From Inhella proteolytica (GTDB lineage Bacteria; Pseudomonadota; Gammaproteobacteria; Burkholderiales; Burkholderiaceae_C), in NCBI RefSeq assembly GCF_016093275.1, contig NZ_JAEDAK010000005.1, positions 1-64,000 of the forward strand: a DNA stretch of 64,000 nt, read 5' to 3'. The notes under the pieces were generated by a model. It was not told the DNA's origin and did no database searches. It worked only from the letters and a program-made list of their open reading frames with translations. The position numbers and the translations under genes are program-made. Position 1 is the first letter of the stretch. Each line of letters opens with the position of its first letter. Below are positions 16,597 to 37,945 of this stretch, piece by piece.

Positions 16597-16655
16597 TACA
16601 GCTCCTCACAAAGAACGACTTGACATGAAATGTCAAGCCGCTATCGTGCGCCGAC

Positions 16656-17108
16656 ATGTTATGTCTGGAGAACACGGTGAGCCTGGCAACCCCTTTGATG
16701 GATGTGCTGAAGGGCCTGGACGGGCTGCTGAGCGAGCAGCTTGGCGGCCTGGCTGTGCAGCTGCAGCCGATTCCCGGCGCGGTGACGGTGCTGCAGGTCA
16801 GCATCGAAGGGCGCGAGGAGCTGCCGATCTTCCTCACCGGCTCCGAGCACCAGATCCTCTGCATCTGCTACCTCTGGGACGAAGCCCAGGTGCGGCCCGA
16901 GCGCCGCACCGAGCTGCTGGAGACCCTGCTGGACCTGAACCCGTCGGTGCCGCTGTCGGACTTCGGCCGCGTCGGTGAGCGCTATGTGCTGATCGGCGCG
17001 CTGCGCCGCGAGGCCGCGGTGCAGGACGTGGCCAAGGAGCTGGCCGTGCTGAGTGACAACGCACTCGACGCGCTGGATGCGCTGGCCGAGTTCCTGATCG
17101 AGGAGTGA
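16656..17108 (+). CDS. YjfI-like (DUF2170) protein; first gene of the PspA-flotillin operon
   Basis: 'DGLLSEQLGGLAV...ELPIFLTGSEHQILCICYLWDE' resembles the E. coli YjfI/DUF2170 family. Its stop overlaps the start of the PspA-like gene. Confidence 0.65.
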   Translation: MLCLENTVSLATPLMDVLKGLDGLLSEQLGGLAVQLQPIPGAVTVLQVSIEGREELPIFLTGSEHQILCICYLWDEAQVRPERRTELLETLLDLNPSVPLSDFGRVGERYVLIGALRREAAVQDVAKELAVLSDNALDALDALAEFLIEE

Positions 17109-17776
17109 CCATGCCCAACGCCATCCGCCACATGCTGACCAGCCTGCGCGCCAGCGTGCAGGAACTGGGCGAGACCCTGCTCGGCCCCGAGCTGGACGCG
17201 CAGCGCCTGCAGTCCGCCCAGGCCGATCTGCGCGACGCGCGCCAGCACCTGGAGACGCTGCTGACGCAGCAGCTGCGCCTGGGCCGCGAGCAGGAGCAGG
17301 GTGCGCAGGAAACGGCGCGCCTGGAAGATCTGGCCACCAAGGCCTTGGCCCAGGGGCGCGAGGACCTGGCCGAGGCGCTGGCCGACCGCATCCTGGCCCA
17401 GCAGGCCGATGCCCAGGCTCGCCTGCAGCAGCTGGAGCTGCTGGGCACCCAGGCCCAGCAGCTGCGCACGCAGATCCAGGCCGCCGAGGCGCGCCTGCGC
17501 GAGTTCGAGCGCGAGCTGCAGATGGCCGAGACGCGCGCCGCGGTGGCGCGCACCACCCGCACGGTGGCCGATCAGCTGGCCGACGGTGCGGCGCTGCGCC
17601 GCCTGCGCGAGCGCCGCCAGGCCGAGGCCGACCGCAGCGCCGCCGCCGCCCAGATGGCTGGCGAAGACGCGCTGGAGCGCCAGCTGGTGGAGGCCGGCCT
17701 GATGCCCGACCCCGCCACCGAGCCGCGCCGCCGCCTGCTCGAGCGCCTGCGCGCGCGCAGTCAGGACCTGCGCTGA
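17105..17776 (+). CDS. PspA/IM30 (Vipp1/ESCRT-III-like) family protein, YjfJ-type
   Basis: All-helical, coiled-coil pattern. 'MPNAIRHMLTSLRASVQELGETLLGPELDAQRLQSAQADLRDARQHLETLL' matches the PspA/IM30 N-terminus. No pspB/C/F nearby. Confidence 0.8.
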   Translation: MTMPNAIRHMLTSLRASVQELGETLLGPELDAQRLQSAQADLRDARQHLETLLTQQLRLGREQEQGAQETARLEDLATKALAQGREDLAEALADRILAQQADAQARLQQLELLGTQAQQLRTQIQAAEARLREFERELQMAETRAAVARTTRTVADQLADGAALRRLRERRQAEADRSAAAAQMAGEDALERQLVEAGLMPDPATEPRRRLLERLRARSQDLR

Positions 17777-18141
17777 TGGCCATCCGCAAACCCGCCCGCT
17801 GGAAAAGCACGGACGAGGCCTTGAAAGCCGTGCAGGTCGCCTTTGATGTCGAGCTCAGCGTGATGGACGCGGTGCGCACCGCGGCCTTTCTGAACGAGGT
17901 CTCGCCCTCGGACCAGATCCGCCGCCTGCTGCAGCTGCCCACGGCCGAGCGCCCCAAGCGCCCGCGCCTGACCGTCACCCTCGGAAGCGAGGATTACGCG
18001 CTGCTGGCCGAGCGCTATGGTCTGGACCCGGAGGACCGCCTCGCCATCAAGGAGCAGGTGACGGCCGAGCTGATCACCTTTGCCGAACAACACCCGGCGC
18101 TGCCGCGCAAGGCCGCGCTGCGCCAGAAGGGGAAGAGCTGA
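17776..18141 (+). CDS. Hypothetical small protein in the PspA-flotillin operon
   Basis: TGATG start/stop overlap on both sides (translational coupling). No recognisable motif. Confidence 0.5.
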   Translation: MAIRKPARWKSTDEALKAVQVAFDVELSVMDAVRTAAFLNEVSPSDQIRRLLQLPTAERPKRPRLTVTLGSEDYALLAERYGLDPEDRLAIKEQVTAELITFAEQHPALPRKAALRQKGKS

Positions 18142-18758
18142 TGGGATTCATCGACGCTGCGCTGAGCTACCCGACGGGTTTGCTGAGCGCCCTGCTGGCC
18201 GTGGTGCTGGTGTACTGGCTGCTGGCCCTGGTGGGCCTGGCGGACTTTGAAACCGATGGCCTGGAATGGCAGGCCGATGTGGACGCCGGCGAACTCAGCG
18301 GCGCGGCCGCGCTGCTGGTGGGCCTGGGCCTGGGTGGCGTGCCCTTCTCCATCGCCGCCAGCCTGGTGGTGCTGCTGGCCTGGACCTTCTGCTGCCTGGC
18401 CGCCATGTGGGTGCTGCCCACCGAGCCGGGGCTGCTGATGCAGATCGGCGCCGGCACCGGCGTGCTGCTGCTTGCGCTGGCCTGGGGCGTGCTGCTCACC
18501 AGCCGGCTCATCCGCCCGCTGCGCCCGCTCTTCAAGACGCACCAGGCCCAGCTGAACGCCGACCTGGTGGGCCAGCCCTGCACGGTGCTCACCGGCAGCG
18601 TGGACGAAAAGCTCGGCCAGGCCGAGATCAAGCAGGCGGGCGCCAGCCTGAACGTGCGCGTGTGGGCTGCCAGCCCGAACGATTTCAAGCGGGGCTCCAC
18701 CGCCCGCATCGCCGAATACGACGCGGCCCGCGGCCGCTATCGCATCGAACCCGTCTAA
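18141..18758 (+). CDS. YqiJ/NfeD-like membrane protein (OB-fold C-terminus)
   Basis: N-terminal TM helices plus C-terminal beta-rich 'GQPCTVLTGSVDEKLGQAEIKQAGASLNVRVWAA...RIAEYDAARGRYRIEPV', typical of NfeD/YqiJ partners of SPFH proteins. Confidence 0.65.
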   Translation: MGFIDAALSYPTGLLSALLAVVLVYWLLALVGLADFETDGLEWQADVDAGELSGAAALLVGLGLGGVPFSIAASLVVLLAWTFCCLAAMWVLPTEPGLLMQIGAGTGVLLLALAWGVLLTSRLIRPLRPLFKTHQAQLNADLVGQPCTVLTGSVDEKLGQAEIKQAGASLNVRVWAASPNDFKRGSTARIAEYDAARGRYRIEPV

Positions 18759-18786: not shown

Positions 18787-20988
18787 ATGGAGCCCCTGAT
18801 CGTTGCTGTCGTCATCCTCGCCGTCCTGCTGCTCGGCATGGTGGCGCTGTTCGCCAAGTTCTATCTGAAGATCGACCAGGGCTATGCGCTGATCGTCAAC
18901 ACCCTGCGCGCCGAGCCCGAGGTCACCTTCACCGGGCGCATGGTCTACCCGATCATTCACCGCGCCGAGCTGATGGACATCTCGCTCAAGACCATCGAGA
19001 TCGACCGCAGCGGGAACGAGGGCCTGATCTGCAAGGACAACATCCGCGCCGACATCAAGGTCAAGTTCTTCGTGCGCGTGAACAAGACGGCCGACGACGT
19101 GCTCAAGGTCGCGCAGGCGATCGGCTGCGCGCGCGCCAGCAGCCAGGAAACCCTGGAAGAGCTGTTCTCCGCCAAGTTCTCCGAGGCCCTGAAGACGGCC
19201 GGCAAGGCGCTCGACTTCGTCGACCTCTACCAGGCGCGCGACCGCTTCCGCGACGAGATCCTGCGCCAGATCGGTGACGACCTGAGCGGCTACGTGCTCG
19301 AAGACGCCGCCATCGACTACCTGGAGCAGACGCCCATCCAGAAGCTCGACAGCAACAACATCCTCGACGCCCAGGGCATCAAGAAGATCACCGAGCTCAC
19401 CGCCGTGGAGCACGTGCGCACCAACGAGCTGCGCCGCAACGGCGAGATGCAGATCAAGAAGAAGGACGTCGAGACCCAGGAGACCATGCTGGAGCTGGAG
19501 CGCCAGGCCGCCGATGCCCAGGCCAAGCAGAGCCGCGAGATCGCCAGCGTGAAGGCGCGCGAGGAAGCCGAGACGCAGAAGATCCAGGCCGAGGAGCGCA
19601 CCAAGGCCGAACTGGCCCGCCTGCAGGCCGAACAGCAGCTCGCCGTGCAGCAGGAGAACGTGCTGCGCGAGAAAGAGGTGGCCGAGAACAACCGCAAGCG
19701 TGCGGTGGCCATCGAAGAAGAGAAGGTCACCCGCGCCCGCGAGCTGGAGGTGGTGGACCGCGAGAAGGAAGTGACCCTGCAGCGCATCGACAAGGACCGC
19801 GCGGTGGAGGTGCAGAAGAAGGCGATTGCCGACGTGGTGCGCGAGCGCATCGTGGTGGAGCGCACCGTGGCCGAGCAGGAAGAGGCCATCAAGGAACTGC
19901 GCACCGTGGCCGAGGCCGAGCGCAACAAGAAGGCCACCGTGGTGATGGCCGAAGGCCAGGCCGAAGAGAAGCTGCTGCTGGAGGTGAAGGCCGCCGAAGC
20001 GCAGGAGCGCCGCGCCCGCCACAAGGCCGCCGAGGAACTGACGCTCGCCGATGCCAAGCTGAAGGTGGCCGAGCGCGAAGCCGAGGCCAAGAAGCGCGAG
20101 GCCGAGGGCCTGGAGGCCATCACCGCCGCGCCCGGCTTTGCCCAGGCCAAGGTGGCCAAGGTGGGTGCCGAGGCCAAGCTGGCGCAGATGGAGGCCGAGG
20201 CCGCGGGCAAGCAGAAGATCGGTCTGTCGGAAGTGCAGGTGCGCACCGCCGAGGCCGAGGCCACGCTCAAGGCCGGCCAGGCCGAGGCGCAGGTGGTGCA
20301 GGCCAAGATGACGGCCGAAGCCGAGGGCAAGGGCAAGCTCGGCCTGGCCGAGGCGCAAGCCGTGCAGGCCAAGCTGCTCGCCGAGGCCGAGGGCAAGGAA
20401 AAGCTCGGCCTCGCCGACGTGCATGTGCGCGCCGCCGAATCGGACGCGCTGATCAAGGTGGGCGAAGCCGAGGCCCGCAACATCGAGCTGCGCTTCCAGG
20501 CCGAGGCCAAGGGCCTGCGCGAGAAGTTCGACGCCATGAAGGCCATGAGCCCGGACACCCGCCAGCACGAAGAGTTCCGCATGGCGCTGGAGAAGCAGCA
20601 CACCGAAACCATGAAGGGCATCGACGCCCAGACCTCGATCGCCCGCGAGCAGGCCGAGGTGCTGGGTGGCGCGCTCTCGAAGGCGAACATCGACATCGTC
20701 GGCGGCGAGGGCGACTATTTCGACCGCTTCGTGCGCGCGCTCTCCATCGGCAAGGGCATCGACGGCGTGATCCAGAACAGCCGCACCCTGCAGGTGGGCC
20801 TGAAGGACCACCTGACCGGCGAGCGCGATCTGGTGGGCGACTTGAAGGGCCTGGTGGGCGCGCTCGGCGGTGCGAGCGGCGAACTGCAGAACCTGACCGT
20901 GGCCAATCTGCTGGCCAAGGTGGCCAAGGATGGGACGGAGCCGCAGAAGGCCGCGCTGGCCACGCTGCTCAACGGCTTGAAGAACTGA
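18787..20988 (+). CDS. Flotillin-family (SPFH/band-7) protein, YqiK-like, with a long Ala/Glu/Lys-rich coiled-coil repeat region
   Basis: N-terminal TM helix. SPFH domain (GYALIVNTLRAEPEVTFTGRMVYPIIHRAELMDISLKTIEI...). About 350 aa of EA-repeat coiled coil. C-terminal flotillin tail. Confidence 0.85.
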   Translation: MEPLIVAVVILAVLLLGMVALFAKFYLKIDQGYALIVNTLRAEPEVTFTGRMVYPIIHRAELMDISLKTIEIDRSGNEGLICKDNIRADIKVKFFVRVNKTADDVLKVAQAIGCARASSQETLEELFSAKFSEALKTAGKALDFVDLYQARDRFRDEILRQIGDDLSGYVLEDAAIDYLEQTPIQKLDSNNILDAQGIKKITELTAVEHVRTNELRRNGEMQIKKKDVETQETMLELERQAADAQAKQSREIASVKAREEAETQKIQAEERTKAELARLQAEQQLAVQQENVLREKEVAENNRKRAVAIEEEKVTRARELEVVDREKEVTLQRIDKDRAVEVQKKAIADVVRERIVVERTVAEQEEAIKELRTVAEAERNKKATVVMAEGQAEEKLLLEVKAAEAQERRARHKAAEELTLADAKLKVAEREAEAKKREAEGLEAITAAPGFAQAKVAKVGAEAKLAQMEAEAAGKQKIGLSEVQVRTAEAEATLKAGQAEAQVVQAKMTAEAEGKGKLGLAEAQAVQAKLLAEAEGKEKLGLADVHVRAAESDALIKVGEAEARNIELRFQAEAKGLREKFDAMKAMSPDTRQHEEFRMALEKQHTETMKGIDAQTSIAREQAEVLGGALSKANIDIVGGEGDYFDRFVRALSIGKGIDGVIQNSRTLQVGLKDHLTGERDLVGDLKGLVGALGGASGELQNLTVANLLAKVAKDGTEPQKAALATLLNGLKN

Positions 20989-21540: not shown

Positions 21541-21684
21541 GACGTGACCCACCCCCGAAGCGCCTTTGGCGCTTCCCCCTCAAGGGGGCGCCACTGGCGG
21601 CCCGGCAAAGCCGGTTCCGCGGTGGCCCCTTGATCAATCTGGCGCTGCTGCTGTTGTCGCATTGAGTTGCCACCGGAATTCCAC

Positions 21685-24600
21685 ATGACCACCATGCCCG
21701 ATGCCGCCGACAGCGCCAGCTTCGAGCTGCTCAAAAAACGCCTCGCCACCCAAGGCGAGGCGCTGGCCGCGCAAACCTGCGCGCTGAACGACGCGCGCCT
21801 GCAGGCCTTCGGCCGCAGCGAGCTGGCCCTGCTGCTGCGCACCCGCGCCCGCACCGAGAACAACTGCCATGCGCGCGACCTCGTGCGCATTGGCGAGCAG
21901 CTGCTGTTCGGCTTCAACGTCTTCATCGGCCTGCGCAAGGAAACCTCGGTCGCCGATGTGTTCGCGCTCTATCGGCTGGGCGCGGGCGATGAGCTCGAAG
22001 CCCTGCCGCTGGCCGGCAGCTTCCTGGACGAAGCCCGCTTCACGCAGGACTTCCGCGAGCTCTACGCCTATTACAAGAACGCCACGCTGATCCAGCTGCG
22101 CGTCACCGCGGACAAGCTGCTCGCCGCCTTCCAGATCGGCCAGCAGCTGCACGACCTGCGCGTGTTCCGCTGGCAGATCGAGCGCGATGGCAGCCTGAAG
22201 TACATCGACAACCGCGGCGAGCGCGACATGCAGCTGCCGCCCACGCACGACTTCGAATGGACGCCCACCGCGCGCGAGCACCAGGTGGCCGGCCGCCACC
22301 CGCACGTCAACATCCTCGACACCGTGTTCGTCGAGACCACCGGCGGCGACCTCACCGTCAAGGTGGAGAACAACACCGAGAGCGGGCTGGGCATCTACAG
22401 CGAGCCGGTGGAAGACAGGAACCAGAGCCTGGCCGATGCCGAGATCGCCTACGCCCGGCTCGGCGCCTTGATCCTGCTGCGCATCAAGCCCTACCGCGAG
22501 ACGGTCACGCGCTACCTGGTGTTCAACACGCGCACCCGCGCGGTCGAGCGCATCGACGCCATCGGCTCTTCCTGCGTGCAGCTGCCCGAGGACCACGGCA
22601 TCCTCTTCCCCGGCGGCTGCTACCTGCAGAACGGCGAGACCAAGCGCTTCGACCTACCCGAGGCCATCACCGCCGGCCTGCGCTTCAAGCGCATGGTGCG
22701 CTCGCCCAATGGCGAGGACGTGCTGTTCGTCTTCTACGAACCGACAAGCGGGCATTACGCGCTCTTCACCTACAACCTCATCAACAAGGCCCTGGCCACG
22801 CCCCTGCTGGCCAACGGTTATGCACGCTTCCCCGATGGCCGCGTGCTCGTCTTCCTGACCGAAGGCGCCGAGCCCACGCGCGTGCACCCCATGCAGCTGT
22901 GGCAAACGCCCTTCTTCAGCGAAGAGCATGCGCTGGCGCAACCGAAGGCCGAGGGCTTCTTCGGCCGCATCGGCAACGCCGAGCTGGTGCGCGGCATTGC
23001 CGAGCTGAATGGCATCGCCCGCGCGCTGGCCGACCAGCCGCCCACCCGCACCGCCTACGAAGACCTGCTGCGCCAATGCGGCCGCGTCGTCGATGCCTAT
23101 TTCTGGCTGGATGAGACGGAAGCCGGCGGCCTGCTGCAGGCGCTCAAGGCCATCCAGGACGGCGCCCGCGCCACCCTCACCGAATTCGAGAAGGTCGAGG
23201 CCATCCGCCAGGACACCGCCAAGGCCTTTGCCCAGGCCGAAGGCCAGCAGCGCGAACTGCTCACGGTCATCGCCAGCACCCTGTGGAAGCAGCCGGACGA
23301 CTTCATCCAGGCGCTGGCGCGCCTGCGGGAACGCCGCGGCCAGCTGCAACTGCTGAAGGAGCTGCGCTACGCCGATCTGGCACGCGTGCAGGCCTGGGAC
23401 GAGGCCCTGGCCACCGAACAGCAGCGCGTGGGCGAAAAGGCCCTCGCCTTCCTGGCCGGCGACAAGGCCTTCGACAGCCAGCGCGCGGCGCTCACCAACC
23501 TGGCCGCCGAACTGCCCCAGGCCAGCACCACCACGCAGATCGCCGCCCTGCTCGCCACCCTGGACGAACAGGCTGCCGGCCTGGACCTGCTGACCGAGCA
23601 GCTCGGCAGCCTGCCGGGCGGCGACGCGGTGACGCGCACCCAGATCCTCGACCGCATCTCGGCCCTCTACGCCGACATCAACCGCCTGCGCGCCGAAGCG
23701 CGCCAGCGCCGCAAAAGCATGGGCGCGGCCGAGGCCACGGCCGAGTTTGGCGCCCAGTTCAAGCTGTTCGGCCAGGCGGTGGACAACGCGGTGTCCTTTG
23801 CCGACACGCCCGAGGCCTGCGACGAGGCCCTGACCCGGCTGCTGGCCCAGCTGGAAGAGCTGGAAGGCCGCTTTGCCGAGCACGACGAGTTCCTGCTCGA
23901 CATCACCACCAAGCGCGAGGCTGTGGTCGAGGCCTTTGCCGCGCGCCGCCAAACCCTGGTGGACGCGCGCCAGCGTCGCGCCCAGGCCATCACCGACGCG
24001 GCCGGTCGCATCCTCGACGGCCTGCCGCGCCGCCTGGCCAATCTGGCCGATCTGGCGGCCGTGCACAGCCTGTTCGCCGCCGACCCCCTGGTGGGCAAGC
24101 TGCGCAGCCTCATCAAGGACCTGCGCGACTTGGGCGCCGCCGTGGCCGCCGATGAGCTGGACACCCGCCTCAAGACCGCACGCGACAACGCCCTGCGCGT
24201 GGTGCGCGACCAGAAGGACCTGGCCAGCGACGGCGGCAAGGCGCTCAAGCTCGGCCGCCATGCCTTCAGCGTCAACCACCAGGCGCTGGAACTGACCCTG
24301 GTGCCGCGCAACGAAGCGCTGAGCTTCCACCTCACCGGCACCGACTATTTCGCCCCCGTGCAGGACGAGCGCCTGAACGCCCTGGCCCCCTACTGGCAGC
24401 AGGCCCTGGTGAGCGAAACCGCCGAGCTGAGCCGTGCCGAATACCTGGCCGGCTGCGTGCTGCAGGCCGCGCTGGCCGGTGAGGAAGGCGATGCCCTGCC
24501 GGAGCTCTTGGGGCACGCCCTCGCCGGCCCGGACGGCCACGCGGCCCTGCTCGAAGCCGTCCGCCGCTTCGCCGCCCCGCGCTACCAGGAGGGCTACCAG

Positions 24601-26754
24601 AAGGGCGTGCACGACGAAGACGCGGCGCGTCTGCTCGGCCCCCTGCTGGTGATGCAGGACAGCGCCGGCCTGCTCGCCTTCGAGCCCGCCGCCCGCGCCC
24701 TGGCCATGCGCTTCTGGGCCGGCGCGCTTGACGAGCCGGCCCAGGCCGCGCTGCAACGCCGCGCCCGCGCCGCCGCGCAGATGCGCGCCCTCTTCAAGGC
24801 CGCCGAGCCGCAAGCCCAGCTGGAAGCCGAGCTGGCCCCGCAGCTCGCCGCCTTCGCGCCCGACCAGGCCGAACACGCCCCCCGCGCCGCCGCCTACCTG
24901 GCGCGCCAGCTCGCTGCCGCACACCCCGCCTGGCCGCTGGCCAATGGCGCCGGCGAATTGGTGGACCAACTCTGGCGCGCGCTGGAGCGCAGCGGCCAGG
25001 CCGGCCCCTTGCGCCACGACCTGGAAGCCGCCAGCCCGACCGAGCGCTGGCAGCAGGCGCGGGCCTGGCTGCAGGCCTTCGCCCAGGCCCAGCACCCGCA
25101 GCTGCTGCAGTGGCTGGACGATGCCGCGAGCAGCCTGGCCATCCCCAAGCTGCCGCGCGAACGCCTGGGCGTGGAGCTGGAGCATGCGGTGAGCGGCCTG
25201 CTCAGCGAACACCCGCGCATTCAGCAAGGCCAGCTGCTGCTGAACCTGAACGAGTTCTGGCGCCGCTTTGCCCACCACCAAGCCGTGGTGCTGCCGGCCT
25301 TCCAGGCCTTGCAGGCGCGCCGGCTGGAACTCGTTCAACAGGAAAAGCAGCGCCTGCGCCTGGAGCAGTTCCAGGCCAAGCCGCTCTCCAGCTTCGTGCG
25401 CAACCGCCTGATCGACGAGGTCTACCTGCCCCTGGTGGGCGACAACCTGGCCAAGCAGCTCGGCACCGCCGGCGAAGGCGCCCGCACCGACCGCATGGGC
25501 CTGCTGCTGCTCATCTCGCCGCCCGGCTACGGCAAGACCACCTTGATGGAGTACCTGGCCGAACGCCTCGGCCTGATCTTCGTGCGCATCAACTGCCCGG
25601 CGCTCGGCCACGACATCACATCCGTCGACCCGAGTGCGGCCACGCACAGCGCCGCGCGCCAGGAGCTGGAAAAGCTCAACCTCGGCCTGGCCATGGGCAA
25701 CAACGTGATGCTGTACCTGGACGACATCCAGCACACCCACCCCGAGTTCCTGCAGAAGTTCATCGCCCTGGCCGACGGCACGCGCCGCATGGAAGGCGTG
25801 TGGAACGGCCAGCCGCGCTCGTACGACCTGCGCGGCAAACGCTTCGCCATCGTCATGGCCGGCAACCCGTATACCGAGAGCGGCGAGGTCTTCAAGATCC
25901 CCGACATGCTGGCCAACCGGGCCGACATCTACAACCTTGGCGACGTGCTGTCAGGCCGCGAGCAGCTGTTCGCGCTCAGCTACATCGAGAACGCGCTCAC
26001 CGCCAACCCGGCCCTGCAACCCCTGGCCAGCCGCGACCCCGCCGACGTGCACAAGTTGGTGCGCCTGGCGCAAGGCCAGGAGGTGCCCGCCACCGACTTC
26101 GCCCACCCCTACAGCGCGGCCGAACTGGACGAGCTGCGCGAGCTGATGCAGCGCCTCTTCAAGGCGCGCGACCTGCTGCTCAAGGTCAACCTCGCCTACA
26201 TCGAGAGCGCCGCCCAGGCCGACGCCTACCGCAGCGAGCCGCCCTTCAAGCTGCAGGGCAGCTACCGCAATATGGGCAAGCTGACGGCCAAGATCACCGC
26301 CCTGATGCGCGACGAGGAGCTGGATGCGCTGCTGCGCGACCACTACCGCGGCGAGGCCCAAACGCTCACCAGCGGGGCCGAAGAAAACCTGCTCAAGCTC
26401 GCCCACCTGCTCGGCTCCCCCACCGACGAGGAGCGCACGCGCTGGGCTGCCATCTGCGAGGAATACGTCAAGCGCCGCAAGCTAGGCGGCGCCGGGCAGG
26501 ACGGCCACACGCGCATCGCCGCGTCCTTGCTCGACGTGGCCGGCGCGGTCAAGGACCTGCACCTGAACCCGCCCATGACCGAGGGCATGAAGATGGCCGA
26601 GGCTCTGCTGCAGCTCTCCATCACCTACCGCAAGATCCTGATGCCCTTGGTCTCGGCGACCGAGAAGCGGCTGGAGCTGGATCAGTCGCTGCATGAGCAG
26701 GTGGAGCGGTTGGCGCGTGGGGTGGAGGGCGATCCTCTGGAGGATGGGGTCTGA
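21685..26754 (+). CDS. Giant (~1690 aa) uncharacterised protein with C-terminal AAA+ ATPase domain
   Basis: Single uninterrupted GC3-biased ORF. Beta-rich N-terminal ~450 aa. About 800 aa of Ala/Leu/Glu/Arg-rich helical region. AAA+ module near the C-terminus: Walker A 'ISPPGYGKTTLMEY', Walker B 'VMLYLDDIQ', sensor-1-like 'IVMAGNPYT', Arg 'DMLANRADIYNLG'. Confidence 0.8.
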   Translation: MTTMPDAADSASFELLKKRLATQGEALAAQTCALNDARLQAFGRSELALLLRTRARTENNCHARDLVRIGEQLLFGFNVFIGLRKETSVADVFALYRLGAGDELEALPLAGSFLDEARFTQDFRELYAYYKNATLIQLRVTADKLLAAFQIGQQLHDLRVFRWQIERDGSLKYIDNRGERDMQLPPTHDFEWTPTAREHQVAGRHPHVNILDTVFVETTGGDLTVKVENNTESGLGIYSEPVEDRNQSLADAEIAYARLGALILLRIKPYRETVTRYLVFNTRTRAVERIDAIGSSCVQLPEDHGILFPGGCYLQNGETKRFDLPEAITAGLRFKRMVRSPNGEDVLFVFYEPTSGHYALFTYNLINKALATPLLANGYARFPDGRVLVFLTEGAEPTRVHPMQLWQTPFFSEEHALAQPKAEGFFGRIGNAELVRGIAELNGIARALADQPPTRTAYEDLLRQCGRVVDAYFWLDETEAGGLLQALKAIQDGARATLTEFEKVEAIRQDTAKAFAQAEGQQRELLTVIASTLWKQPDDFIQALARLRERRGQLQLLKELRYADLARVQAWDEALATEQQRVGEKALAFLAGDKAFDSQRAALTNLAAELPQASTTTQIAALLATLDEQAAGLDLLTEQLGSLPGGDAVTRTQILDRISALYADINRLRAEARQRRKSMGAAEATAEFGAQFKLFGQAVDNAVSFADTPEACDEALTRLLAQLEELEGRFAEHDEFLLDITTKREAVVEAFAARRQTLVDARQRRAQAITDAAGRILDGLPRRLANLADLAAVHSLFAADPLVGKLRSLIKDLRDLGAAVAADELDTRLKTARDNALRVVRDQKDLASDGGKALKLGRHAFSVNHQALELTLVPRNEALSFHLTGTDYFAPVQDERLNALAPYWQQALVSETAELSRAEYLAGCVLQAALAGEEGDALPELLGHALAGPDGHAALLEAVRRFAAPRYQEGYQKGVHDEDAARLLGPLLVMQDSAGLLAFEPAARALAMRFWAGALDEPAQAALQRRARAAAQMRALFKAAEPQAQLEAELAPQLAAFAPDQAEHAPRAAAYLARQLAAAHPAWPLANGAGELVDQLWRALERSGQAGPLRHDLEAASPTERWQQARAWLQAFAQAQHPQLLQWLDDAASSLAIPKLPRERLGVELEHAVSGLLSEHPRIQQGQLLLNLNEFWRRFAHHQAVVLPAFQALQARRLELVQQEKQRLRLEQFQAKPLSSFVRNRLIDEVYLPLVGDNLAKQLGTAGEGARTDRMGLLLLISPPGYGKTTLMEYLAERLGLIFVRINCPALGHDITSVDPSAATHSAARQELEKLNLGLAMGNNVMLYLDDIQHTHPEFLQKFIALADGTRRMEGVWNGQPRSYDLRGKRFAIVMAGNPYTESGEVFKIPDMLANRADIYNLGDVLSGREQLFALSYIENALTANPALQPLASRDPADVHKLVRLAQGQEVPATDFAHPYSAAELDELRELMQRLFKARDLLLKVNLAYIESAAQADAYRSEPPFKLQGSYRNMGKLTAKITALMRDEELDALLRDHYRGEAQTLTSGAEENLLKLAHLLGSPTDEERTRWAAICEEYVKRRKLGGAGQDGHTRIAASLLDVAGAVKDLHLNPPMTEGMKMAEALLQLSITYRKILMPLVSATEKRLELDQSLHEQVERLARGVEGDPLEDGV

Positions 26755-27818: not shown

Positions 27819-28298
27819 TTAATTTGAGACAACAATGAAAGCGCTCAACGAAGTCGCTATTGATTGTCTGTCCGCGTACGTCGCGCGAACTCGAAATACA
27901 CCAATACTATTGGCCTTCACAGAAACAGATACGGTAGAGAATCCGTCGGTTCCGATGGCAACGACTGACGGCGCTACTATGGCTCCGTGATCAATTGCTC
28001 CAAATGAATCCACAATATCCAGCATGACTTCGCCGCCAGGATTGGCCTTACGCACGTCGTCGAAATATACAGACCTCAGCCAAATTGGAACTGTTTCGCC
28101 TGCCCGAATCGTCCAAGACAAGTCTTGTCTCTGTGGCAATATGCAACACTTAGGAACTGTGCCAATTCCGACTAATACATATGTGCTATTGCGGTCTCGA
28201 ATTGGCTGAATTCGATTAGCCTGCAATGCGCAGCAGCCAACGAGCAAAAATAGAACGCCCACCGACAGTGCATGCTTGGTTCGTTGCAGGCCGCTCAT
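27819..28298 (-). CDS. Hypothetical lipoprotein/secreted protein in AT-rich islet
   Basis: Signal/lipobox-like 'LFLLVGCCALQA'. AT-rich codon usage unlike the host genome. Confidence 0.5.
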   Translation of the reverse strand: MSGLQRTKHALSVGVLFLLVGCCALQANRIQPIRDRNSTYVLVGIGTVPKCCILPQRQDLSWTIRAGETVPIWLRSVYFDDVRKANPGGEVMLDIVDSFGAIDHGAIVAPSVVAIGTDGFSTVSVSVKANSIGVFRVRATYADRQSIATSLSAFIVVSN

Positions 28299-28329
28299 GT
28301 CCCTAGCATTGCCTCATGGTGAGTGGCGT

Positions 28330-29778
28330 TTATTTACGAATTCCCAGTGCCTCTGCCTCAAGGCGATTCAATTCAGCGTCGGTCAGACTTTGAATGCGGG
28401 CAAACCGCTCGCCTGAAAATGCAGGTAGAACCTTGCCCATTTCCGCAGCCGCTGGGCTAAATGTTTCGCAGAATGACGTTCGATTGTAGAGTGCCAAGAG
28501 TCGATCGTACTGCGCTGTATTAATTTCACCGAGAGCAAGCTTTTCTTCCAACTTCAGAAGCTTGGGCTGTTTGGCTTTTGCCTCGCAGGCCATGCGCGCA
28601 TTAAAGGTGTCGATCTTTTGCTGAGTAATGCACGCTTCGCTGGCATTGCTCAAATCAGAGAACATTGATTTGGTAGCACTATTGCAGCTAACAGCAAGCA
28701 CCATCGAGGCCGGAATCCGGTAATTGAAGCGCCCCGTATAGGAAACCGTGTCTTTGTACTCAATTGTTTGCTTGAAGTGTGCACTGCTGTATCCTGCATT
28801 CACACTAACACTCCAAGGCCATGTAGCGCTGGCTCCACCGCCGCCGGGATCGCCGGCGTCCGGATTCGGTTCAAATCGAAAGAATCCATCCCCTTCGACC
28901 GCTAGTTTGTTGACGGCCTCATATATTTTTTTGACCATATCAAACACTTGACGGCCATATTTTTCGTTGTCAAGCGACCCTTCCTTCATATCAAAAGTGC
29001 AGGCCTTGGATTTTTCCAATTCCTGCTGAACCTTTGAATAGTTGAGTGAGCCGACCTTGAACCAGCCAAGCGACGCAGAGGCGCTAAATTTCGAGCGAAT
29101 TTGGGACCAAACCTGCGATAGGTCACATGATATCTTTGCGGTCCATGGGTCGCCGACAAATTCCGTCTCACCTACAAAATTTACGGCAAAAGTGGGATTG
29201 GGTTGAATGTCGAAATTGGAAGACTGTCGAGCTCCGACCACTTGTGCGAAAAGCGAATTCCCGGTGCCAATGGAGTAGGCAAAATCAGATGTGAAATTGA
29301 TTATTGATGGAAACACGACCGTAACATCCTTCTTGCCAAGCGACAACGTCTCGCTATCAAGTACAGGAGTAACGGTAACGTTCTTCAGCGAAAGTGGAAG
29401 TAGTTTTGGGTTGGCTACCCCATATGCCTTTTTGATTTCTGCAGTGAGCTCTGTTCTTTGTTTTGCCGTTATGTCAATATTGGCCGAGCCAGAGACAATG
29501 GCGCCAACAATTGAGTAAATTGCACCTGATGAATCTTGTGCCCAATGAGTCGGGCCGATTCCCCAATACTGGGCCTTAAACGCCTTGAGATTTACACCGA
29601 GGGCAAGGTCAATGCGACCAGGCTGGTAGTGGAACTGATTCTTGTCAGTGTCGTCCTGATACGCAATTACGCCGGCAACTGCAGTGCCCTTGCTGAAAAG
29701 CGGAGCGGCTGCGGCATTGCCAGAGCCCAGAATGAACATAAAGGTGAAACACCCAATTGTTGCTGAATAAGAGCGCAT
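28330..29778 (-). CDS. Hypothetical secreted 482-aa protein with SHOCT-like C-terminal helix (AT-rich islet)
   Basis: Signal peptide 'FTFMFILGSGNAAAAP'. Beta-rich body. C-terminal 'KLLKLEEKLALGEINTAQYDRLLALY' resembles a SHOCT motif. Compositionally foreign (~45-50% GC). Confidence 0.6.
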   Translation of the reverse strand: MRSYSATIGCFTFMFILGSGNAAAAPLFSKGTAVAGVIAYQDDTDKNQFHYQPGRIDLALGVNLKAFKAQYWGIGPTHWAQDSSGAIYSIVGAIVSGSANIDITAKQRTELTAEIKKAYGVANPKLLPLSLKNVTVTPVLDSETLSLGKKDVTVVFPSIINFTSDFAYSIGTGNSLFAQVVGARQSSNFDIQPNPTFAVNFVGETEFVGDPWTAKISCDLSQVWSQIRSKFSASASLGWFKVGSLNYSKVQQELEKSKACTFDMKEGSLDNEKYGRQVFDMVKKIYEAVNKLAVEGDGFFRFEPNPDAGDPGGGGASATWPWSVSVNAGYSSAHFKQTIEYKDTVSYTGRFNYRIPASMVLAVSCNSATKSMFSDLSNASEACITQQKIDTFNARMACEAKAKQPKLLKLEEKLALGEINTAQYDRLLALYNRTSFCETFSPAAAEMGKVLPAFSGERFARIQSLTDAELNRLEAEALGIRK

Positions 29779-29895
29779 GCAGTTCTCCGGTTTAGTAATT
29801 CAACTCAGTTGAGGCCTATGTTTTGCTCAGTGTGCTAGTCGACTCTCGGCAACTGTTCACCGGGAAGATGGGCAGCACCATAGGGTTTGCGCTAA

Positions 29896-29913
29896 CTCCT
29901 CATTAATGAGGAG
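29896..29913. promoter_or_regulatory. Perfect 18-bp palindrome CTCCTCATTAATGAGGAG in divergent promoter region
   Basis: Self-reverse-complementary. Lies between the start of the AT-rich 482-aa gene (minus, 29778) and the NYN gene (plus, 30052). Confidence 0.5.
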
Positions 29914-30051
29914 GACGAAGGGCCATCTGCTCGCTTCGGGGCGTTGCCTTTCGCGGCTTCGGGGAAAGGCCTTAAATCGAACCCCTTCGAACCAAAGGCC
30001 CCAGTGGGCCTCCGTGCCCCGATTAATGCTTGCCAGCCCGAACGCCGTAGC

Positions 30052-33417: not shown

Positions 33418-34599
33418 TTGGTAGCACCAATGTTCATGAAATTGCATGCGCCGCGATGCACGCCCCAGGCCGTCATCAAGCACTGGTGCGGGCTGCTGAT
33501 CGGTATGGCCTTGATTCAGCCAGGCTTTGCCGCCACGGCTGGAGATGCGGGGACTGCCACGGCAAGACAGCGGGCGCGCAACGACAACACGATCGTGGCG
33601 GTGTCGCGCATCTTTGAGCTTCGCCGTATCGCGGCACCGCTGTGCAGCGCAGAGCCGCAATGGGATTGGGTCCAGCAACTCATCTTGGTGCGAAAGCCTG
33701 AACGCTGGGCGTTCTCCACGGACCGGGCTCTGGCTGAGATCCTGAATCGGCACTTCGAAGCCAAGCCAGGCGAGTTGATTGTGTTGGTGGACCAGCGAAG
33801 CGGTTCGTTCAAGCTGCCCGGTGGTCTGAAGGCGGGTGACCGCATCTTGGCCGCCGACGCGTCCGAAGCCGAACTCTTGATCCGTCGGCCCTTGGAAGGC
33901 GAGTTCCATGCCGACACCCAGGAACGTTTGCGTCGAGCCAATGAATGGGCTCGGAGCCAACCCTCACGAACCCTCCAGCTGATTCGTCAAGGCCAGACCC
34001 TGAAGCTCGACATTGAGCCGATTCCGATCTGCGCGATGCGCTTTGGCGTGGTGAACAGCGAGACCGCCTATGCGGCTGCTCGGTCTGATCTCATTCTGGT
34101 CACCCATCCTCTTCTGGAGCAACTGAGCGCAGACGAACTCACGATGGTGCTGGCCCACGAGGCGGCTCAGGTGCTGCTGGCCCTGACGGATCCCAACAAG
34201 CCAACCAACTGGAAATCAGGAGCTTGGCCCTTGTTGGGCGGCAACTCGCAATGGAATCGCGAGCTGGGACTCGGCGCGCCGACGCTGGAGAGCTTGATCG
34301 AGGCCGATCGTCTGACGGTGATGCTGCTGGAGCCCTTCGGGCTGGGGCCCCAGGAATACCTCGAGTTTCTGGCGCGGGTTCAAGCGGCGGAGCCAGGTGG
34401 CATGTTCCGTCCGACCTACGCCAACTTGCGGCCCGTGGCTGAACAGAGGCTGGAAGCCGTGCGATCGCTGCACGCGAATCGCCAGGCGGAAGGTCGCTGG
34501 ACGCTGAAGCCGCAAGGCATTTCCGAAGCAGCGTTTCGGGCCTTCCTCGATCACCTGGGCAACGAACAGACCCGCATCAAGGCGCAGTCGAATCCTTGA
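33418..34599 (+). CDS. Hypothetical secreted protein (PDZ-like segment; degenerate metalloprotease-like 'HEAAQ')
   Basis: Hydrophobic N-terminus. 'GDRILAADASEAELL' is PDZ-like. 'MVLAHEAAQVL' is HExxH-like but lacks the second His. Start uncertain. Confidence 0.45.
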   Translation: MVAPMFMKLHAPRCTPQAVIKHWCGLLIGMALIQPGFAATAGDAGTATARQRARNDNTIVAVSRIFELRRIAAPLCSAEPQWDWVQQLILVRKPERWAFSTDRALAEILNRHFEAKPGELIVLVDQRSGSFKLPGGLKAGDRILAADASEAELLIRRPLEGEFHADTQERLRRANEWARSQPSRTLQLIRQGQTLKLDIEPIPICAMRFGVVNSETAYAAARSDLILVTHPLLEQLSADELTMVLAHEAAQVLLALTDPNKPTNWKSGAWPLLGGNSQWNRELGLGAPTLESLIEADRLTVMLLEPFGLGPQEYLEFLARVQAAEPGGMFRPTYANLRPVAEQRLEAVRSLHANRQAEGRWTLKPQGISEAAFRAFLDHLGNEQTRIKAQSNP

Positions 34600-34747
34600 C
34601 GCGCGCCGATCGTGCCCCACGCCGCTCAGGATTGCCAGAAGCACGCAACCACCCTGCCGCTTCTGGGTCGGGTCTTACTCCCTGACTTCAATAGCAAGAC
34701 TTCAATCCGGCCCTCGCGAGGGCCCCTTGGCGCCGGGCGCGTGAAAC

Positions 34748-34984
34748 TCAGTCCCACCTCCCGCAACAAGCGCATCACCTGGGGGGTGATGATGTCCACC
34801 GCCGGGCCGTTGGCGCCGTGCGGCAGGATCACGTCGGCGTTGCGCTCGGTCGGTTCGATGAACTGCTTGTGCATCGGGCACACGGTTTCCAGGTACTGAT
34901 TGACCACCTATGTGCTGCGGCCGCGCTCGGAAATGTCGTGCTGCAGGCGGCGGATGAAGCGCATGTCCGAGGCCGTGTCCACGT
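34748..34984 (-). pseudogene. Duplicated, frameshifted copy of the 3' end (about the last 80 codons) of uridine kinase
   Basis: About 90% nucleotide identity to 37706-37945. Translates as '...VVNQYLETVCPMHKQFIEPTERNADVILPHGANGPAVDIIT...', but a short indel near 34905 breaks the frame. No upstream kinase portion (P-loop) is present. Confidence 0.7.
34748..34984. repeat. Direct repeat copy 1 (~240 bp) of the udk 3' region
   Basis: Aligns with 37706-37945 with only a few mismatches/indels (e.g. ...GTGATGATGTCCACCGCCGGGCCGTTGGCGCCGTGCGGCAGGATCACGTCGGCGTTGCGC...). Confidence 0.8.
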
Positions 34985-35002
34985 ATAGCCGGCGTGCGGA
35001 GT

Positions 35003-37501
35003 TCACCCTTCCAAATAGGGCAGTCCGCTGCCCGCCAAGCCCACGAGGTCGATTTGCTGCGCGGTCATTGGAAGTTCACAGGCCATTCGAGCCAGTACCG
35101 CCTGACTGGTCTCCCCGCGATCCAGTTGACCGACGAACTCAGCCAGGGTCGCTTCCGATGGGGCTTGCCCGACCACGTTCTGGTAGACCGTCCGGACGAA
35201 ATCAGCGTGTCCGTGCGATCCGGCGCGCTCGGCAAACAAGTCCGAAGCCACGGCCGCTGCGACCAACTCTCCAAAGGCCATGCCGCCATCGAGGTATCGC
35301 AAGCCAAGGCCAACCAGTGACGCATCGGTCAAGGTGGCTTTGCCAAACAGCGCACCGATCAGCCGGGCCACTTGACCGGCATGACCTTCCAAATCAAGTG
35401 CCAGCGCCGGACCCTGGCTGAACACCAAGCGCTCAACCTGCTGCAAGAGATCTCCCTGGCTTTCGGCGCCAGATCCTTCGACGACCACCTGCTGCGCCGA
35501 GATTTGCACTCGATGCTGCGCAAGGCTGTAGGAATACAGGGCTCGGTCTATTCCATTCCCGCCATCAATGACATCGGCGCCCGGCCCGCCCTCAATGCGG
35601 TCGGCGCCATCACCACCGAATAGCCAGTCGGCTTCGGCCCCACCCCGCAAGATGTCGGCGCCCGGGCCGCCCCTGACCAAGAGTCCCTGGAAGTTCAGAC
35701 CTGGCAGGGGGCCTAGCGAGGCAAGCTGGGAACCTCCCCCAGGGTGATCATCAGGGCGGATTTCGGTGACGCTCAGTGTGTAGGTGCCCAAGCCCATGCT
35801 CTTGAGGTAATAACTTCCGCTCCGGCCTGGCTCAACCTCCAGCACGCCCGTAGGTGGCATCTCAAAACCCGTGGGGTGCAACTTGTCGTCCAACAGGTGC
35901 AGACTGTCGGCAACTCCGTCGCGGCCGCCTTTGTGTTCAATCTGGTACCGCTTGCCTGCTTCGAGATTCAGTCGAAATAGGTCAATATCACCCAGCGTCA
36001 ATTCGTGCTGGAGTACCTGATTCAGATTGACTGGTGTTGAGCTGTTCGAAGTTTCTCCGTGATCATCCTGTTCAATCCGAATGCGCTGAATGGTGTAGCC
36101 GCGCGAGCTACGATCCACGGGATGGTCGTTGGCGCCAATGATTAGATGCTGAAGACCACTGGTACTTGGGGTAAAGCTAAAAATGTAGGCCTTGGGGTTG
36201 TCCGGATCTTGCTGGAACCAGCTGTCAATCGAGCCTTCGCTGAATCCTTCAAATGTGCCCCGGTCTTTGAGAAGCTGAAGCAAGGGGCGCGAGCCGCTAC
36301 CCACTTCCACCCGGAATAAGGAACGCTCATATATTGTCGAGACCGAGAACCGGTACCAATCAGTATCGCCGGCGCCGTATAGAGTTGATTGTTCCAAGCG
36401 CCCAACCGGCATGAACAAGGCATTCTGCGGGCCGTTGTTCTGATCGCTTTCAGGATAGGGCGACCTCAGACGCGCCTCATAGTCCGATGGCAATGCAGAG
36501 CTGTTTGCCTCGGGGGCCGCTCGAAGCCAATAACTACCGGTTGTCGGAGGGATGAATAGCACTTCGCCAACGCCCCGGACAAATTCGATCCCTTGGGCAT
36601 CATGGATGCTGACCTTGGATTCCGATGGCAAGCCCTTCTTCAGCACAGTAATGTTGATCGGGGTGCCGGCAACCAAATAGACCGGAACCCAATCCACATC
36701 CTGAGGATTGCTTAGATCGAGTGGTGCTATTGGGAACTGGGCTTGCAGTGATTGCACTAATCTGAGATCGCTCGGTGCAAGTGGGAAATTCGGGTAATCG
36801 TCTTCGGCAGCAAAGCTGTACTGAGTAAGGCCAAGACGATAGTTTGTTGCGGAATATTCTTGAGTGGCTGCCTTGCCTGACGGTGTTGCCCCAACGGTCA
36901 CAAAGTAGGAGCTGCCCGACGGTGTGGAGAAATCAAAATCTATCAGGCCATCGCTATTGGACTGCCACTCATTGATAAGGGTCGCATCCCTCTCGTCAAA
37001 ACCTCGGTAGAGTTTGACAACAATTCCCGACGCGGCGTTTGAAGCACCCGTCAGATCCAGCTGGAACTGATAACGCTGGCCAGAGTTCAAGTCCAGAGAG
37101 AAGCTGTCCACGTCGCCGCGTGTCTCCAGTTGGCCGGGAAGTGTTTGGCCCACCAGCAGCTTCTCGGTCCGAGTGACGCGATCGGAATGGTCATCGACCG
37201 GCAACGGTGCGGCCTCAATCTCGTACTGAACCGAATGGTTCAAGCCCGAGTGACCGGTCAGGACAAGCTGATACCAGCCCGTAGTTTCAGGCGAACCCAC
37301 GAGCTCCGCGCCTTGAGAAACGGAGCTGGCAGTGGAAAAAAGGACCTTGCCTTCGCCGCTTTGAAGCTTGAGTTCGCTGCCAAAGCTCGAGGCTCCTGAA
37401 GGCGTCTTGACAGTGAAACGGTAGCGCTGGCCTGCCTGCAGAAAGACGCTGAAGGCGTCGGCGTCTCCATCGCCATCCATCTGGCCCTGAACGGTGCTCA
37501 T
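35003..37501 (-). CDS. Secreted Ca2+-binding RTX-repeat protein with pre-peptidase-C-terminal-like (PPC) domains and C-terminal DUF4214
   Basis: Start at 37501 with GGGAGGG RBS. Repeated 'GDxDxFxxxLxxGQRYxF' PPC-like units. 'GGPGADILRGGAEADWLFGGDGADRIEGGPGADVIDGGNGID' hemolysin-type nonapeptide repeats. 'FVRTVYQNVVGQAPSEATLAEFVGQL' is DUF4214. GC lower than host (~55%). Confidence 0.75.
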   Translation of the reverse strand: MSTVQGQMDGDGDADAFSVFLQAGQRYRFTVKTPSGASSFGSELKLQSGEGKVLFSTASSVSQGAELVGSPETTGWYQLVLTGHSGLNHSVQYEIEAAPLPVDDHSDRVTRTEKLLVGQTLPGQLETRGDVDSFSLDLNSGQRYQFQLDLTGASNAASGIVVKLYRGFDERDATLINEWQSNSDGLIDFDFSTPSGSSYFVTVGATPSGKAATQEYSATNYRLGLTQYSFAAEDDYPNFPLAPSDLRLVQSLQAQFPIAPLDLSNPQDVDWVPVYLVAGTPINITVLKKGLPSESKVSIHDAQGIEFVRGVGEVLFIPPTTGSYWLRAAPEANSSALPSDYEARLRSPYPESDQNNGPQNALFMPVGRLEQSTLYGAGDTDWYRFSVSTIYERSLFRVEVGSGSRPLLQLLKDRGTFEGFSEGSIDSWFQQDPDNPKAYIFSFTPSTSGLQHLIIGANDHPVDRSSRGYTIQRIRIEQDDHGETSNSSTPVNLNQVLQHELTLGDIDLFRLNLEAGKRYQIEHKGGRDGVADSLHLLDDKLHPTGFEMPPTGVLEVEPGRSGSYYLKSMGLGTYTLSVTEIRPDDHPGGGSQLASLGPLPGLNFQGLLVRGGPGADILRGGAEADWLFGGDGADRIEGGPGADVIDGGNGIDRALYSYSLAQHRVQISAQQVVVEGSGAESQGDLLQQVERLVFSQGPALALDLEGHAGQVARLIGALFGKATLTDASLVGLGLRYLDGGMAFGELVAAAVASDLFAERAGSHGHADFVRTVYQNVVGQAPSEATLAEFVGQLDRGETSQAVLARMACELPMTAQQIDLVGLAGSGLPYLEG

Positions 37502-37705
37502 GAGTTGTCCCTCCCCGAAAAGGCGGCGGATGCTACGTGAGGGGGGCCGAGTGCGATGCGCCATGCCCGCTGGGCGTGGGAAGCGCTGGTGTCAGGCCCA
37601 TAGCTTGGGGCGGACTTCGGCGACTGTCCTGCCGAAGACTGACTTCCATAGGGGAATCTGTCCCCAGCCCTGAGCCGCCCCGATGTCAGAGCGTCAAGCG
37701 CGGCA

Positions 37706-37945
37706 GGCTCAGCCCTGCCCCATCTCCCGCAACAAACTCATCACCTTGGTGGTGATGATGTCCACCGCCGGGCCGTTGGCGCCGTGCGGCAGGATCACGT
37801 CGGCGTTGCGCTTGGTCGGTTCAATGAACTGCTTGTGCATCGGGCGCACGGTTTCCAGGTACTGATTCACCACCGATTCGGTGCTGCGGCCGCGCTCGGA
37901 AATGTCGCGCTGCAGCCGGCGGATGAAGCGCACGTCCGAGGCCGT
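37706..37945. repeat. Direct repeat copy 2 (inside intact udk)
   Basis: See copy 1. Together they bracket the ~2.7-kb RTX-gene insert. Confidence 0.8.

Follow-up and report, generated by a model that had tools for sequence, protein, structure and literature searches.

The question raised by this locus is what a very large bacterial protein, carried in the databases as a 'DNA repair ATPase', actually does. The gene lies on the plus strand of a 64,000-nucleotide stretch of Inhella proteolytica DNA (contig NZ_JAEDAK010000005.1, positions 1 to 64,000; hereafter the window), where it closes an operon that also encodes a flotillin. We focus here on the ATPase module of this protein, on the genes that accompany it and on the functions that this combination suggests. 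The module is a true AAA+ module of the MoxR/midasin/dynein class, in which an Asp-Asp Walker B, unusual for the class, is fixed, and its invariant genomic partner is a flotillin/NfeD pair, with PspA as a frequent accessory. We think it somewhat probable that the ATPase is a cytoplasmic, probably slow-hydrolysing enzyme that remodels the scaffold formed by flotillin and NfeD (and PspA), driving it to assemble, disassemble or exchange clients when the envelope is under stress.

The ATPase family and its Asp-Asp Walker B

The reading frame is open from a TTG at 21667, and from an ATG at 21685, to the stop at 26754, giving 1690 codons from the ATG. Long open reading frames (ORFs) are frequent on both strands of the window (~70% GC), an antisense ORF of 1028 amino acids (aa) at 22654-25740 being one example, so that ORF length alone is no proof of coding; the frame is settled by homology, namely a Pfam DUF3686 match at E 2.5e-192 and more than 5000 homologues. 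Started at the ATG, the product matches 'DNA repair ATPase [Inhella proteolytica]' of NCBI/UniRef from end to end at 100% identity, and transmembrane (TM) prediction gave no hydrophobic or TM segment. DUF3686 covers aa 27-473 (639.8 bits, cutoff 25; all but the first of the 448 profile positions aligned, 2-448), DUF7902 follows at aa 594-678 (nucleotides (nt) 23464-23718; 83.8 bits, cutoff 26), and matches to AAA_5/AAA, weak yet above threshold, fall at aa 1271-1407. On its sequence, we assign the protein to the DUF3686/DUF7902/AAA family ('DNA repair ATPase', BacE-type), whose domain order does not change even in the most divergent member examined or in the longest. The architecture is not new: it is already covered by the three Pfam families, and Ravi et al. 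2024 described it as 'Betapropeller+Coiled-coil+AAA-ATPase' in a CesT/Tir-PspA-YqiJ/YuaF-flotillin operon (PMC11237479, section 19, Table S3).

Residues 1181-1689, scanned against 1.84 billion cluster representatives, returned 358 of them at E <= 1e-30, and in these the ATPase module is nearly always C-terminal, in proteins of 1600-2000 aa. When a single genome was scanned for each species, at least 593 species of Beta- and Gammaproteobacteria, Myxococcota, Actinomycetota and Bacteroidota proved to have relatives, with a fifth phylum reached through Deinococcus megaplasmids; the system is present on some megaplasmids, pQBR103 among them. Genomic context was surveyed in the 80 best-scoring loci, with iterated hidden Markov model searches on their ORFs. 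A single ORF of at least 1500 codons (median 1771) was found in 69 of the 71 complete loci, which rules out that the gene is really two genes joined by a frameshift, an outcome that the initial annotation had named as damaging to its own reading. Separately, two metagenome-assembled genomes, of Thiomargarita and Kofleriaceae, have the AAA+ module in much shorter ORFs of 629 and 697 codons (L024:9908-11794 and L079:6212-8302). These may reflect a frameshift or faulty assembly, or else a genuinely split or free-standing form of the protein.

Conservation was read from a MAFFT alignment of 73 full-length sequences, comprising the window protein and 72 representatives of 50%-identity clusters, and motifs were checked in these and in the 80 genomic loci, 153 sequences in all. 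A Walker A, a Walker B and a sensor-1-like Asn had been picked out from the sequence in a module at about 25480-26000, and all three are found there (Table 1), the Asn lying where the sensor-1 strand ends in the model described below. SPPGYGKT, DDIQH and GNPYT are 100% invariant in the 73 sequences, Q1349 and H1350 of the Walker B included, and so are E1289, E1327, R1367, R1412, R1516 and R1528; GYGKT and [LVI]DDIQH recur in 80/80 loci. The Walker A follows the AAA+ pattern GxxxxGK[ST]. The Walker B departs from hhhhDE with its catalytic Glu and reads hhhhDD: the Mg-coordinating Asp (D1346) is kept, and an Asp (D1347) stands where the Glu would be in 153/153 sequences. The Asp-Asp pair is thus real, as first suspected, and a hallmark of the family. 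A sub-threshold alignment with midasin, in which LDDIQH...GNPYTESG lies over LDEISL...MNPGGDYGK, sets D1347 against the Glu of the Walker B and N1394 against the sensor-1 residue. The sensor-1 polar residue and the arginine-finger position are both present and invariant, as N1394 and R1412, with putative catalytic roles; R1412 is the candidate that emerged when arginine fingers were looked for in the homologues. Asp-Asp Walker B motifs occur in DnaA, DnaC/IstB and the STAND NTPases (Apaf-1-type), which are switches and not fast motors.

Sequence searches of the PDB, both single-sequence and profile, gave weak matches to the P-loop half only (Rix7, p97, NVL, midasin), and no solved relative was detectable by sequence. 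An AlphaFold2 model of aa 1181-1689 (predicted local distance difference test (pLDDT) 82.6) has the alpha-beta-alpha core and helical lid of an AAA+ protein, in the order beta1 (1274-1277), P-loop and alpha1, beta2 (1298-1303), alpha2, beta3 (1341-1346), alpha3, a hairpin (1368-1381), beta4 (1387-1393), a helix (1407-1412), beta5, the lid and long C-terminal helices. In this model beta3 ends at D1346-D1347, N1394 stands just past beta4 and R1412 closes the helix 1407-1412. The Walker segments are therefore part of a canonical AAA+ core, the point on which the initial annotation had staked its assignment, and Pfam, the model and the fold comparison agree with its view of one contiguous P-loop AAA+ domain, unlike the split heads of SMC/RecN proteins. 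At the position of the helix-2 insert the model has no hairpin; a conserved 17-residue loop (aa 1305-1321) stands there instead, a candidate pore or substrate loop.

The closest solved folds are those of the MoxR-class proteins CbbQ (6l1q) and NorQ (9qh4), and the beta-hairpin before the sensor-1 strand that characterizes MoxR/AAA_5 proteins is present in the model. Identity to CbbQ and NorQ is only 16-18%, the Walker B is Asp-Asp and not Asp-Glu, and there is no VWA/MIDAS partner; relative to these proteins of ~260 residues, the Inhella protein also adds a 1200-residue N-terminal propeller and arm as well as a longer C-terminal helical extension. We would thus speak of a MoxR-type engine and not of a canonical MoxR protein, since the fold and the pre-sensor-1 hairpin are present whereas the VWA partner is absent and the N-terminal extension is very large. 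Midasin/Rea1 and the dynein heavy chains carry six AAA modules per chain, whereas the Inhella ATPase carries one, so that any ring would have to be a homo-oligomer; their binding module is a C-terminal MIDAS or microtubule-binding domain, in place of which the Inhella protein has an N-terminal propeller.

The part that precedes the module was modelled separately (AlphaFold2 on aa 1-1200 with a 71-sequence alignment, pLDDT 87.9, model m45599cb0d6c4). In aa 48-407 the strands group into about seven sheets of four, the Foldseek matches of this domain are propeller proteins, all of them, and the fold is predicted to be a beta-propeller of some seven blades. The beta-rich N-terminal domain described initially thus stands, whereas the helical stalk of ~800 aa said to follow it does not: the model resolves that region into several modules, with helices, a small beta module, a second helical domain and a further beta unit (aa 1158-1187) between the second helical domain and the ATPase. 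The second helical domain bears a GVHDxDA motif (G974-x-H976-D977-x-D979; nt 24604-24624) whose named residues are invariant in the 73 sequences; this G-x-H-D-x-D motif (aa 974-980) is without a fold or family match, though conserved family-wide. A canonical HD phosphohydrolase site at H976-D977 was considered and dropped, as no further conserved His appears in the alignment. The C-terminal extension carries a conserved PPFKLQGSYRNM at aa 1519-1530, and its final ~90 aa are variable.

An operon with flotillin and NfeD

The operon context, which the initial annotation missed, is the decisive clue. All genes are on the plus strand, in the order DUF2170, PspA, a 121-aa protein, short NfeD, flotillin, Zn-ribbon protein and, last, the ATPase; the upstream spacings are -4, -1, -1, 28 and 9 nt, and a 144-nt gap then precedes the ATPase gene. 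Sixty-four of the 80 loci were informative, in that the ATPase ORF was full-length and sufficient sequence lay upstream of it. A flotillin gene lies upstream on the same strand in 63 of these 64, the one outlier having its flotillin 3.3 kb away, and an NfeD-like gene likewise in 63/64; in these loci the ATPase gene comes directly after the short-NfeD and flotillin genes. The DUF2170 and PspA genes, always found together, are present in 41/64, and it is on the strength of these counts that we take the flotillin/NfeD pair, and not PspA, as constant. The Zn-ribbon gene (upstream or downstream of the ATPase) and the 121-aa gene are each found in 21/64. No conserved gene follows the ATPase in 69 loci; the genes seen there most often are lineage-specific and encode a PLD-like hydrolase (16/69), a rhomboid protease (8) and the Zn-ribbon protein (7). 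Examples of these lie at L002:11503-12246, L032:11716-12288 and L029:11723-12277, and all three kinds are membrane- or lipid-related. In P. linyingensis, a GGDEF cyclase gene comes next after the ATPase (L057:11711-12949).

Every conserved or recurrent neighbour is membrane-associated, and none in the neighbourhood is DNA-related. In the window, a single N-terminal segment anchors the flotillin, and about three TM segments are predicted in the NfeD-like protein. The flotillin matches SPFH/Band_7 (E 5.2e-11) when aa 1-238 are scanned, and the full-length protein gives no Pfam match, presumably because the compositional bias of its low-complexity coiled coil masks the domain; such masking is a pitfall for automatic annotation. 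The 205-aa NfeD-like protein matched no family model in the profile scan, and its tail looks OB-like by eye. The DUF2170 protein scores E 7e-11 against the NCBIfam BacA model, below that model's cutoff, and DUF2170 proteins have a CesT/Tir-type chaperone fold according to the literature.

This is the operon of Ravi et al. 2024, and by our inference also that of BacE from P. aeruginosa: the three Pfam domains and their order are shared, as are the accompanying genes for a CesT/Tir-like DUF2170 protein, PspA, a YqiJ/YuaF-type NfeD and a flotillin. Shorter flotillin-YqiJ-ATPase operons are reported to be more widespread (PMC11237479). The P. aeruginosa genes bacABCDEF (PA14_16140 to PA14_16200) are transcribed together, reportedly under the control of sigma-54, and a bacA mutant accumulates BacB-F (PMC10948618); PA14_16160 is a short NfeD and PA14_16180 the SPFH protein PaFlo3, whose mutant has a biofilm defect of only ~20% (PMC13086221). 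PA14_16190 is annotated as 'ATPase involved in DNA repair', and in P. linyingensis the gene order matches bacA-F with a 1752-aa ATPase in fifth place. BacE (PA3728/PA14_16190) is probably the orthologue, judged from this Pseudomonas gene order and annotation text. PA3728 has been described as an 'ATPase' repeatedly mutated in cystic-fibrosis isolates (PMC8190622), and phage infection raised the expression of PA3728-PA3732 in every infected P. aeruginosa sample (PMC12041424). The Inhella member differs from its family in no essential respect; its local peculiarities are the extra 121-aa and Zn-ribbon genes, the lack of a downstream PLD gene and a candidate promoter of sigma-70-like type, where a sigma-54 promoter is reported for P. 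aeruginosa.

The Pseudomonas megaplasmid pQBR103 (L081, NC_009444.1 86998-106635) carries genes of the DUF2491, DUF350, DUF1190 and glutathionylspermidine-synthase families directly upstream of an NfeD-like/SPFH/ATPase triad, with a PLD-family gene ~8.6 kb downstream. These upstream genes are of the yjfK-L-M-C type, and pQBR103 thus joins two PspA-linked operon classes.

Possible functions of the ATPase

The functional class proposed initially, a mechanochemical scaffold or remodeller, is reasonable, and the operon allows it to be made more specific. In our preferred reading, the AAA+ modules would assemble as a ring, as MoxR-class proteins do, and the long arms would carry propellers, which would bind the flotillin/NfeD scaffold on its cytoplasmic side as well as any PspA polymers present; the binding of ATP, with its slow and regulated hydrolysis, would then power scaffold assembly, disassembly or client exchange under envelope stress. 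The bulk of the flotillin would face the cytoplasm, as its N-terminal anchor suggests under the positive-inside rule, in line with what is known of bacterial flotillins, and slow hydrolysis is suggested by the Asp that replaces the Walker-B Glu. This reading draws support from the solubility of the ATPase next to two membrane-anchored partners, from the invariance of K1284, D1346, D1347, N1394 and R1412 and from the near-obligate linkage to the flotillin and short-NfeD pair across five phyla in the loci examined. SPFH scaffolds served by a dedicated AAA+ machine have precedents in HflK/C-FtsH and in prohibitin with the m-AAA protease. An interaction of FtsH with SPFH proteins has also been noted (PMC2636767), although FtsH is a membrane-anchored, classic-clade AAA+ protease inside an SPFH cage, whereas the Inhella ATPase is soluble, without a protease domain and of the MoxR class. 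In B. subtilis, an SPFH protein is reported to connect PspA with the membrane (PMC8581546).

Several points weigh against this proposal. Its mechanistic steps are all drawn from context, literature searches having found no paper on DUF3686 and none with biochemistry of the ATPase. With an Asp in place of the catalytic Glu, hydrolysis could be very low or absent. No conserved docking peptide was found on the flotillin, whose extreme C-terminus is variable; a C-terminal IVGG block is conserved. Canonical MoxR proteins pair with VWA/MIDAS partners, and none was matched among the window neighbours, nor is there a conserved downstream gene in the 69 loci that could supply one. The small defect of the paFlo3 mutant indicates that phenotypes may be subtle (PMC13086221), and the orthology of PA3728 is based on gene order and annotation text and not on its sequence. 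A bolder version, which we consider less likely than not, is that the family is the long-sought ATP-driven remodeller of such bacterial scaffolds, a homo-oligomeric MoxR-class ring with six propeller-tipped arms that would assemble or dismantle flotillin (SPFH) cages and ESCRT-III-like PspA polymers, a functional analogue of Vps4 from another AAA+ clade, with the Asp-Asp site making it a slow, gated engine.

How much of this concerns PspA is the point on which one alternative turns. The ATPase could be the bacterial counterpart of Vps4, disassembling or recycling an ESCRT-III-like PspA (YjfJ-type) polymer, with the flotillin serving as a membrane platform only. As in Vps4/ESCRT-III and the archaeal CdvC/CdvB, an AAA+ protein is here genetically coupled to a polymer-forming member of the ESCRT-III superfamily at the membrane, and the logic of assembly and disassembly is plausibly analogous; PspA and DUF2170 are co-encoded in 41/64 loci and in the window, ESCRT-like ATP-dependent remodelling has been proposed for PspA-AAA+ associations (PMC11237479), and the role appears vacant, a 2025 review finding a Vps4-like ATPase seemingly absent in bacteria (PMC7619361). 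The Inhella ATPase has neither the N-terminal MIT domain nor the classic-clade core of Vps4, and we regard this alternative as rather unlikely. It is unlikely, too, that the protein is a nucleotide-gated scaffold or switch and not a motor, a pseudo-ATPase or slow timer in which Asp-Asp abolishes turnover and ATP binding sets oligomerization or arm conformation. The substitution in 153/153 sequences, and the same motif in the switch-like DnaA, DnaC/IstB and Apaf-1, are what such a switch would predict; the strict invariance of the sensor-1 Asn and of the candidate arginine finger points instead to selection on hydrolysis beyond binding, and the idea overlaps with the remodeller, for which slow hydrolysis is already assumed.

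Three further possibilities are less likely still. The closest folds of the ATPase, CbbQ (a Rubisco activase) and NorQ, and the name 'MoxR-like ATPase' given to some members by JGI annotators would suit a canonical MoxR maturation chaperone that inserts cofactors into, or activates, an unrelated client and is merely co-localized with the flotillin, yet the conserved neighbourhood offers neither a VWA/MIDAS partner nor a candidate client enzyme, and the 1200-aa propeller-arm extension is missing from CbbQ (267 residues) and NorQ (254), which makes such a chaperone improbable. We hold it to be equally improbable that the system is an anti-phage or abortive-infection module acting at the membrane: the induction of PA3728-PA3732 by phage (PMC12041424) would be expected of any phage-shock-type envelope-stress response, and the presence on some megaplasmids, pQBR103 included, and the low-GC patch just downstream in the window are set against chromosomal, syntenic, housekeeping-like conservation across five phyla and PADLOC matches that are weak and P-loop-only (best E 9e-4). 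As for the database label, an SMC/RecN/SbcC-like DNA repair ATPase has in its favour the name and the long helical segments. Such proteins have a split ABC-type head and match their own family models; here there is a single contiguous AAA+ module with a propeller at the N-terminus, the NCBIfam scan returned nothing meaningful and no SMC/RecN/SbcC match, the Pfam and NCBIfam scans detected no DNA-related, DNA-binding or nuclease domain, and the neighbours are membrane proteins. That the label is right is thus scarcely credible, and the suspicion of a mis-annotation voiced at the outset was well placed. The name most likely stems from the description of DUF3686 in Pfam and not from a function, and thousands of 'DNA repair ATPase' entries are probably misnamed.

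Bacterial flotillins and PspA/Vipp1 (ESCRT-III-like) build large membrane scaffolds whose dismantling and regulation are so far poorly explained. Given its linkage to flotillin/NfeD and its occurrence in at least 593 species, this ATPase family is a leading candidate for the energy-consuming component of such scaffolds, and the probable P. aeruginosa counterpart sits in the bac operon, a cluster linked both to biofilm formation and to virulence (PMC10948618). The family, architecture and operon are already on record computationally, and nothing here is specific to the Inhella gene; the value lies in an experimental lead on how bacterial flotillin/PspA scaffolds are powered, and not in a discovery. 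What our analysis adds is the MoxR-class structural placement, the universality of Asp-Asp in the family, a domain map in place of a stalk and the counts that make flotillin/NfeD the constant partner.

Feature positions and further observations

The features of the gene and of its operon are collected in Table 1.

Table 1. Positions of the ATPase gene, its domains and motifs, and the other operon features in the window
Feature	Position	Strand	Basis
Whole gene: DUF3686-DUF7902-AAA+ ATPase, 1689 aa, ~186 kDa, soluble	21685..26754	+	ORF, Pfam, homologues, TM check
AAA+ alpha/beta core, aa 1268-1440, MoxR/midasin/dynein class	25486..26004	+	
Walker A / P-loop SPPGYGKTT, aa 1278-1286, K1284	25516..25542	+	sequence, alignment, loci
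beta2-alpha2 loop, aa 1305-1321; P1305, S1313, P1316 invariant	25597..25647	+	alignment, model
Walker B MLYLDDIQH, aa 1342-1350; D1346-D1347 for the usual Asp-Glu	25708..25734	+	sequence, alignment, loci
Pre-sensor-1 beta-hairpin insert, aa 1368-1381 (strands 1368-1373, 1376-1381)	25786..25827	+	AlphaFold model
Sensor-1 strand and motif MAGNPYTES, aa 1391-1399, N1394	25855..25881	+	sequence, alignment, model
R1412 in LANRAD, end of helix alpha4, canonical arginine-finger position (putative role)	25918..25920	+	alignment, model
Helical lid and C-terminal helical extension, aa 1441-1689	26005..26751	+	alignment, model
N-terminal long helix, aa 5-42	21697..21810	+	AlphaFold model
All-beta domain, aa 48-407, DUF3686 core	21826..22905	+	model strand pattern, Foldseek, Pfam
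Elongated helical-bundle arm, aa 413-841, includes DUF7902	22921..24207	+	AlphaFold model
Small beta module, aa 854-891; G857 invariant, F861 and T886 nearly so	24244..24357	+	alignment, model
Second helical domain, aa 895-1152	24367..25140	+	alignment, model
Candidate operon promoter/operator, TTGACA ... TATCGT (sigma-70-like -35/-10)	16621..16650	+	read from sequence
DUF2170 protein (YjfI/BacA-like)	16656..17108	+	Pfam E 5.6e-28
PspA/IM30-family protein (YjfJ/BacB-like)	17105..17776	+	Pfam E 2.7e-17
121-aa accessory protein	17776..18141	+	weak RelB/DinJ-like (ribbon-helix-helix) match, E 0.036
Short-NfeD-like 205-aa protein (YqiJ/YuaF-type), ~three TM segments, soluble C-terminal tail	18141..18758	+	TM prediction, position
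Flotillin, 733 aa: N-terminal TM anchor (1-30), SPFH/Band_7, long Glu/Ala coiled coil	18787..20988	+	Band_7, TM prediction
Zn-ribbon protein, 180 aa	20998..21540	+	family scan

The candidate promoter, just 5' of the DUF2170 gene, overlaps a perfect palindrome, TTGACAT-gaa-ATGTCAA, and no sigma-54 site like that of P. aeruginosa bacA was found at the operon. The 121-aa protein may act as a small regulator. No promoter-like or terminator-like site was found in the 144 nt between the Zn-ribbon and ATPase genes (21541-21684); GC hairpins abound there, GAAGCGCC-TTT-GGCGCTTC among them, with a stability only marginally above that of shuffled sequence (z -1.94).

Directly downstream of the operon, the GC content falls to 0.50 at 28001-30000 (against ~0.70 for the window), in a patch that may be a foreign insertion. 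Its ORFs at 28330-29778 and 27819-28298, both on the minus strand, gave no Pfam, NCBIfam or PADLOC match, and no tRNA gene lies near. A second region of lowered GC, 0.57-0.63, extends over 34001-38000.

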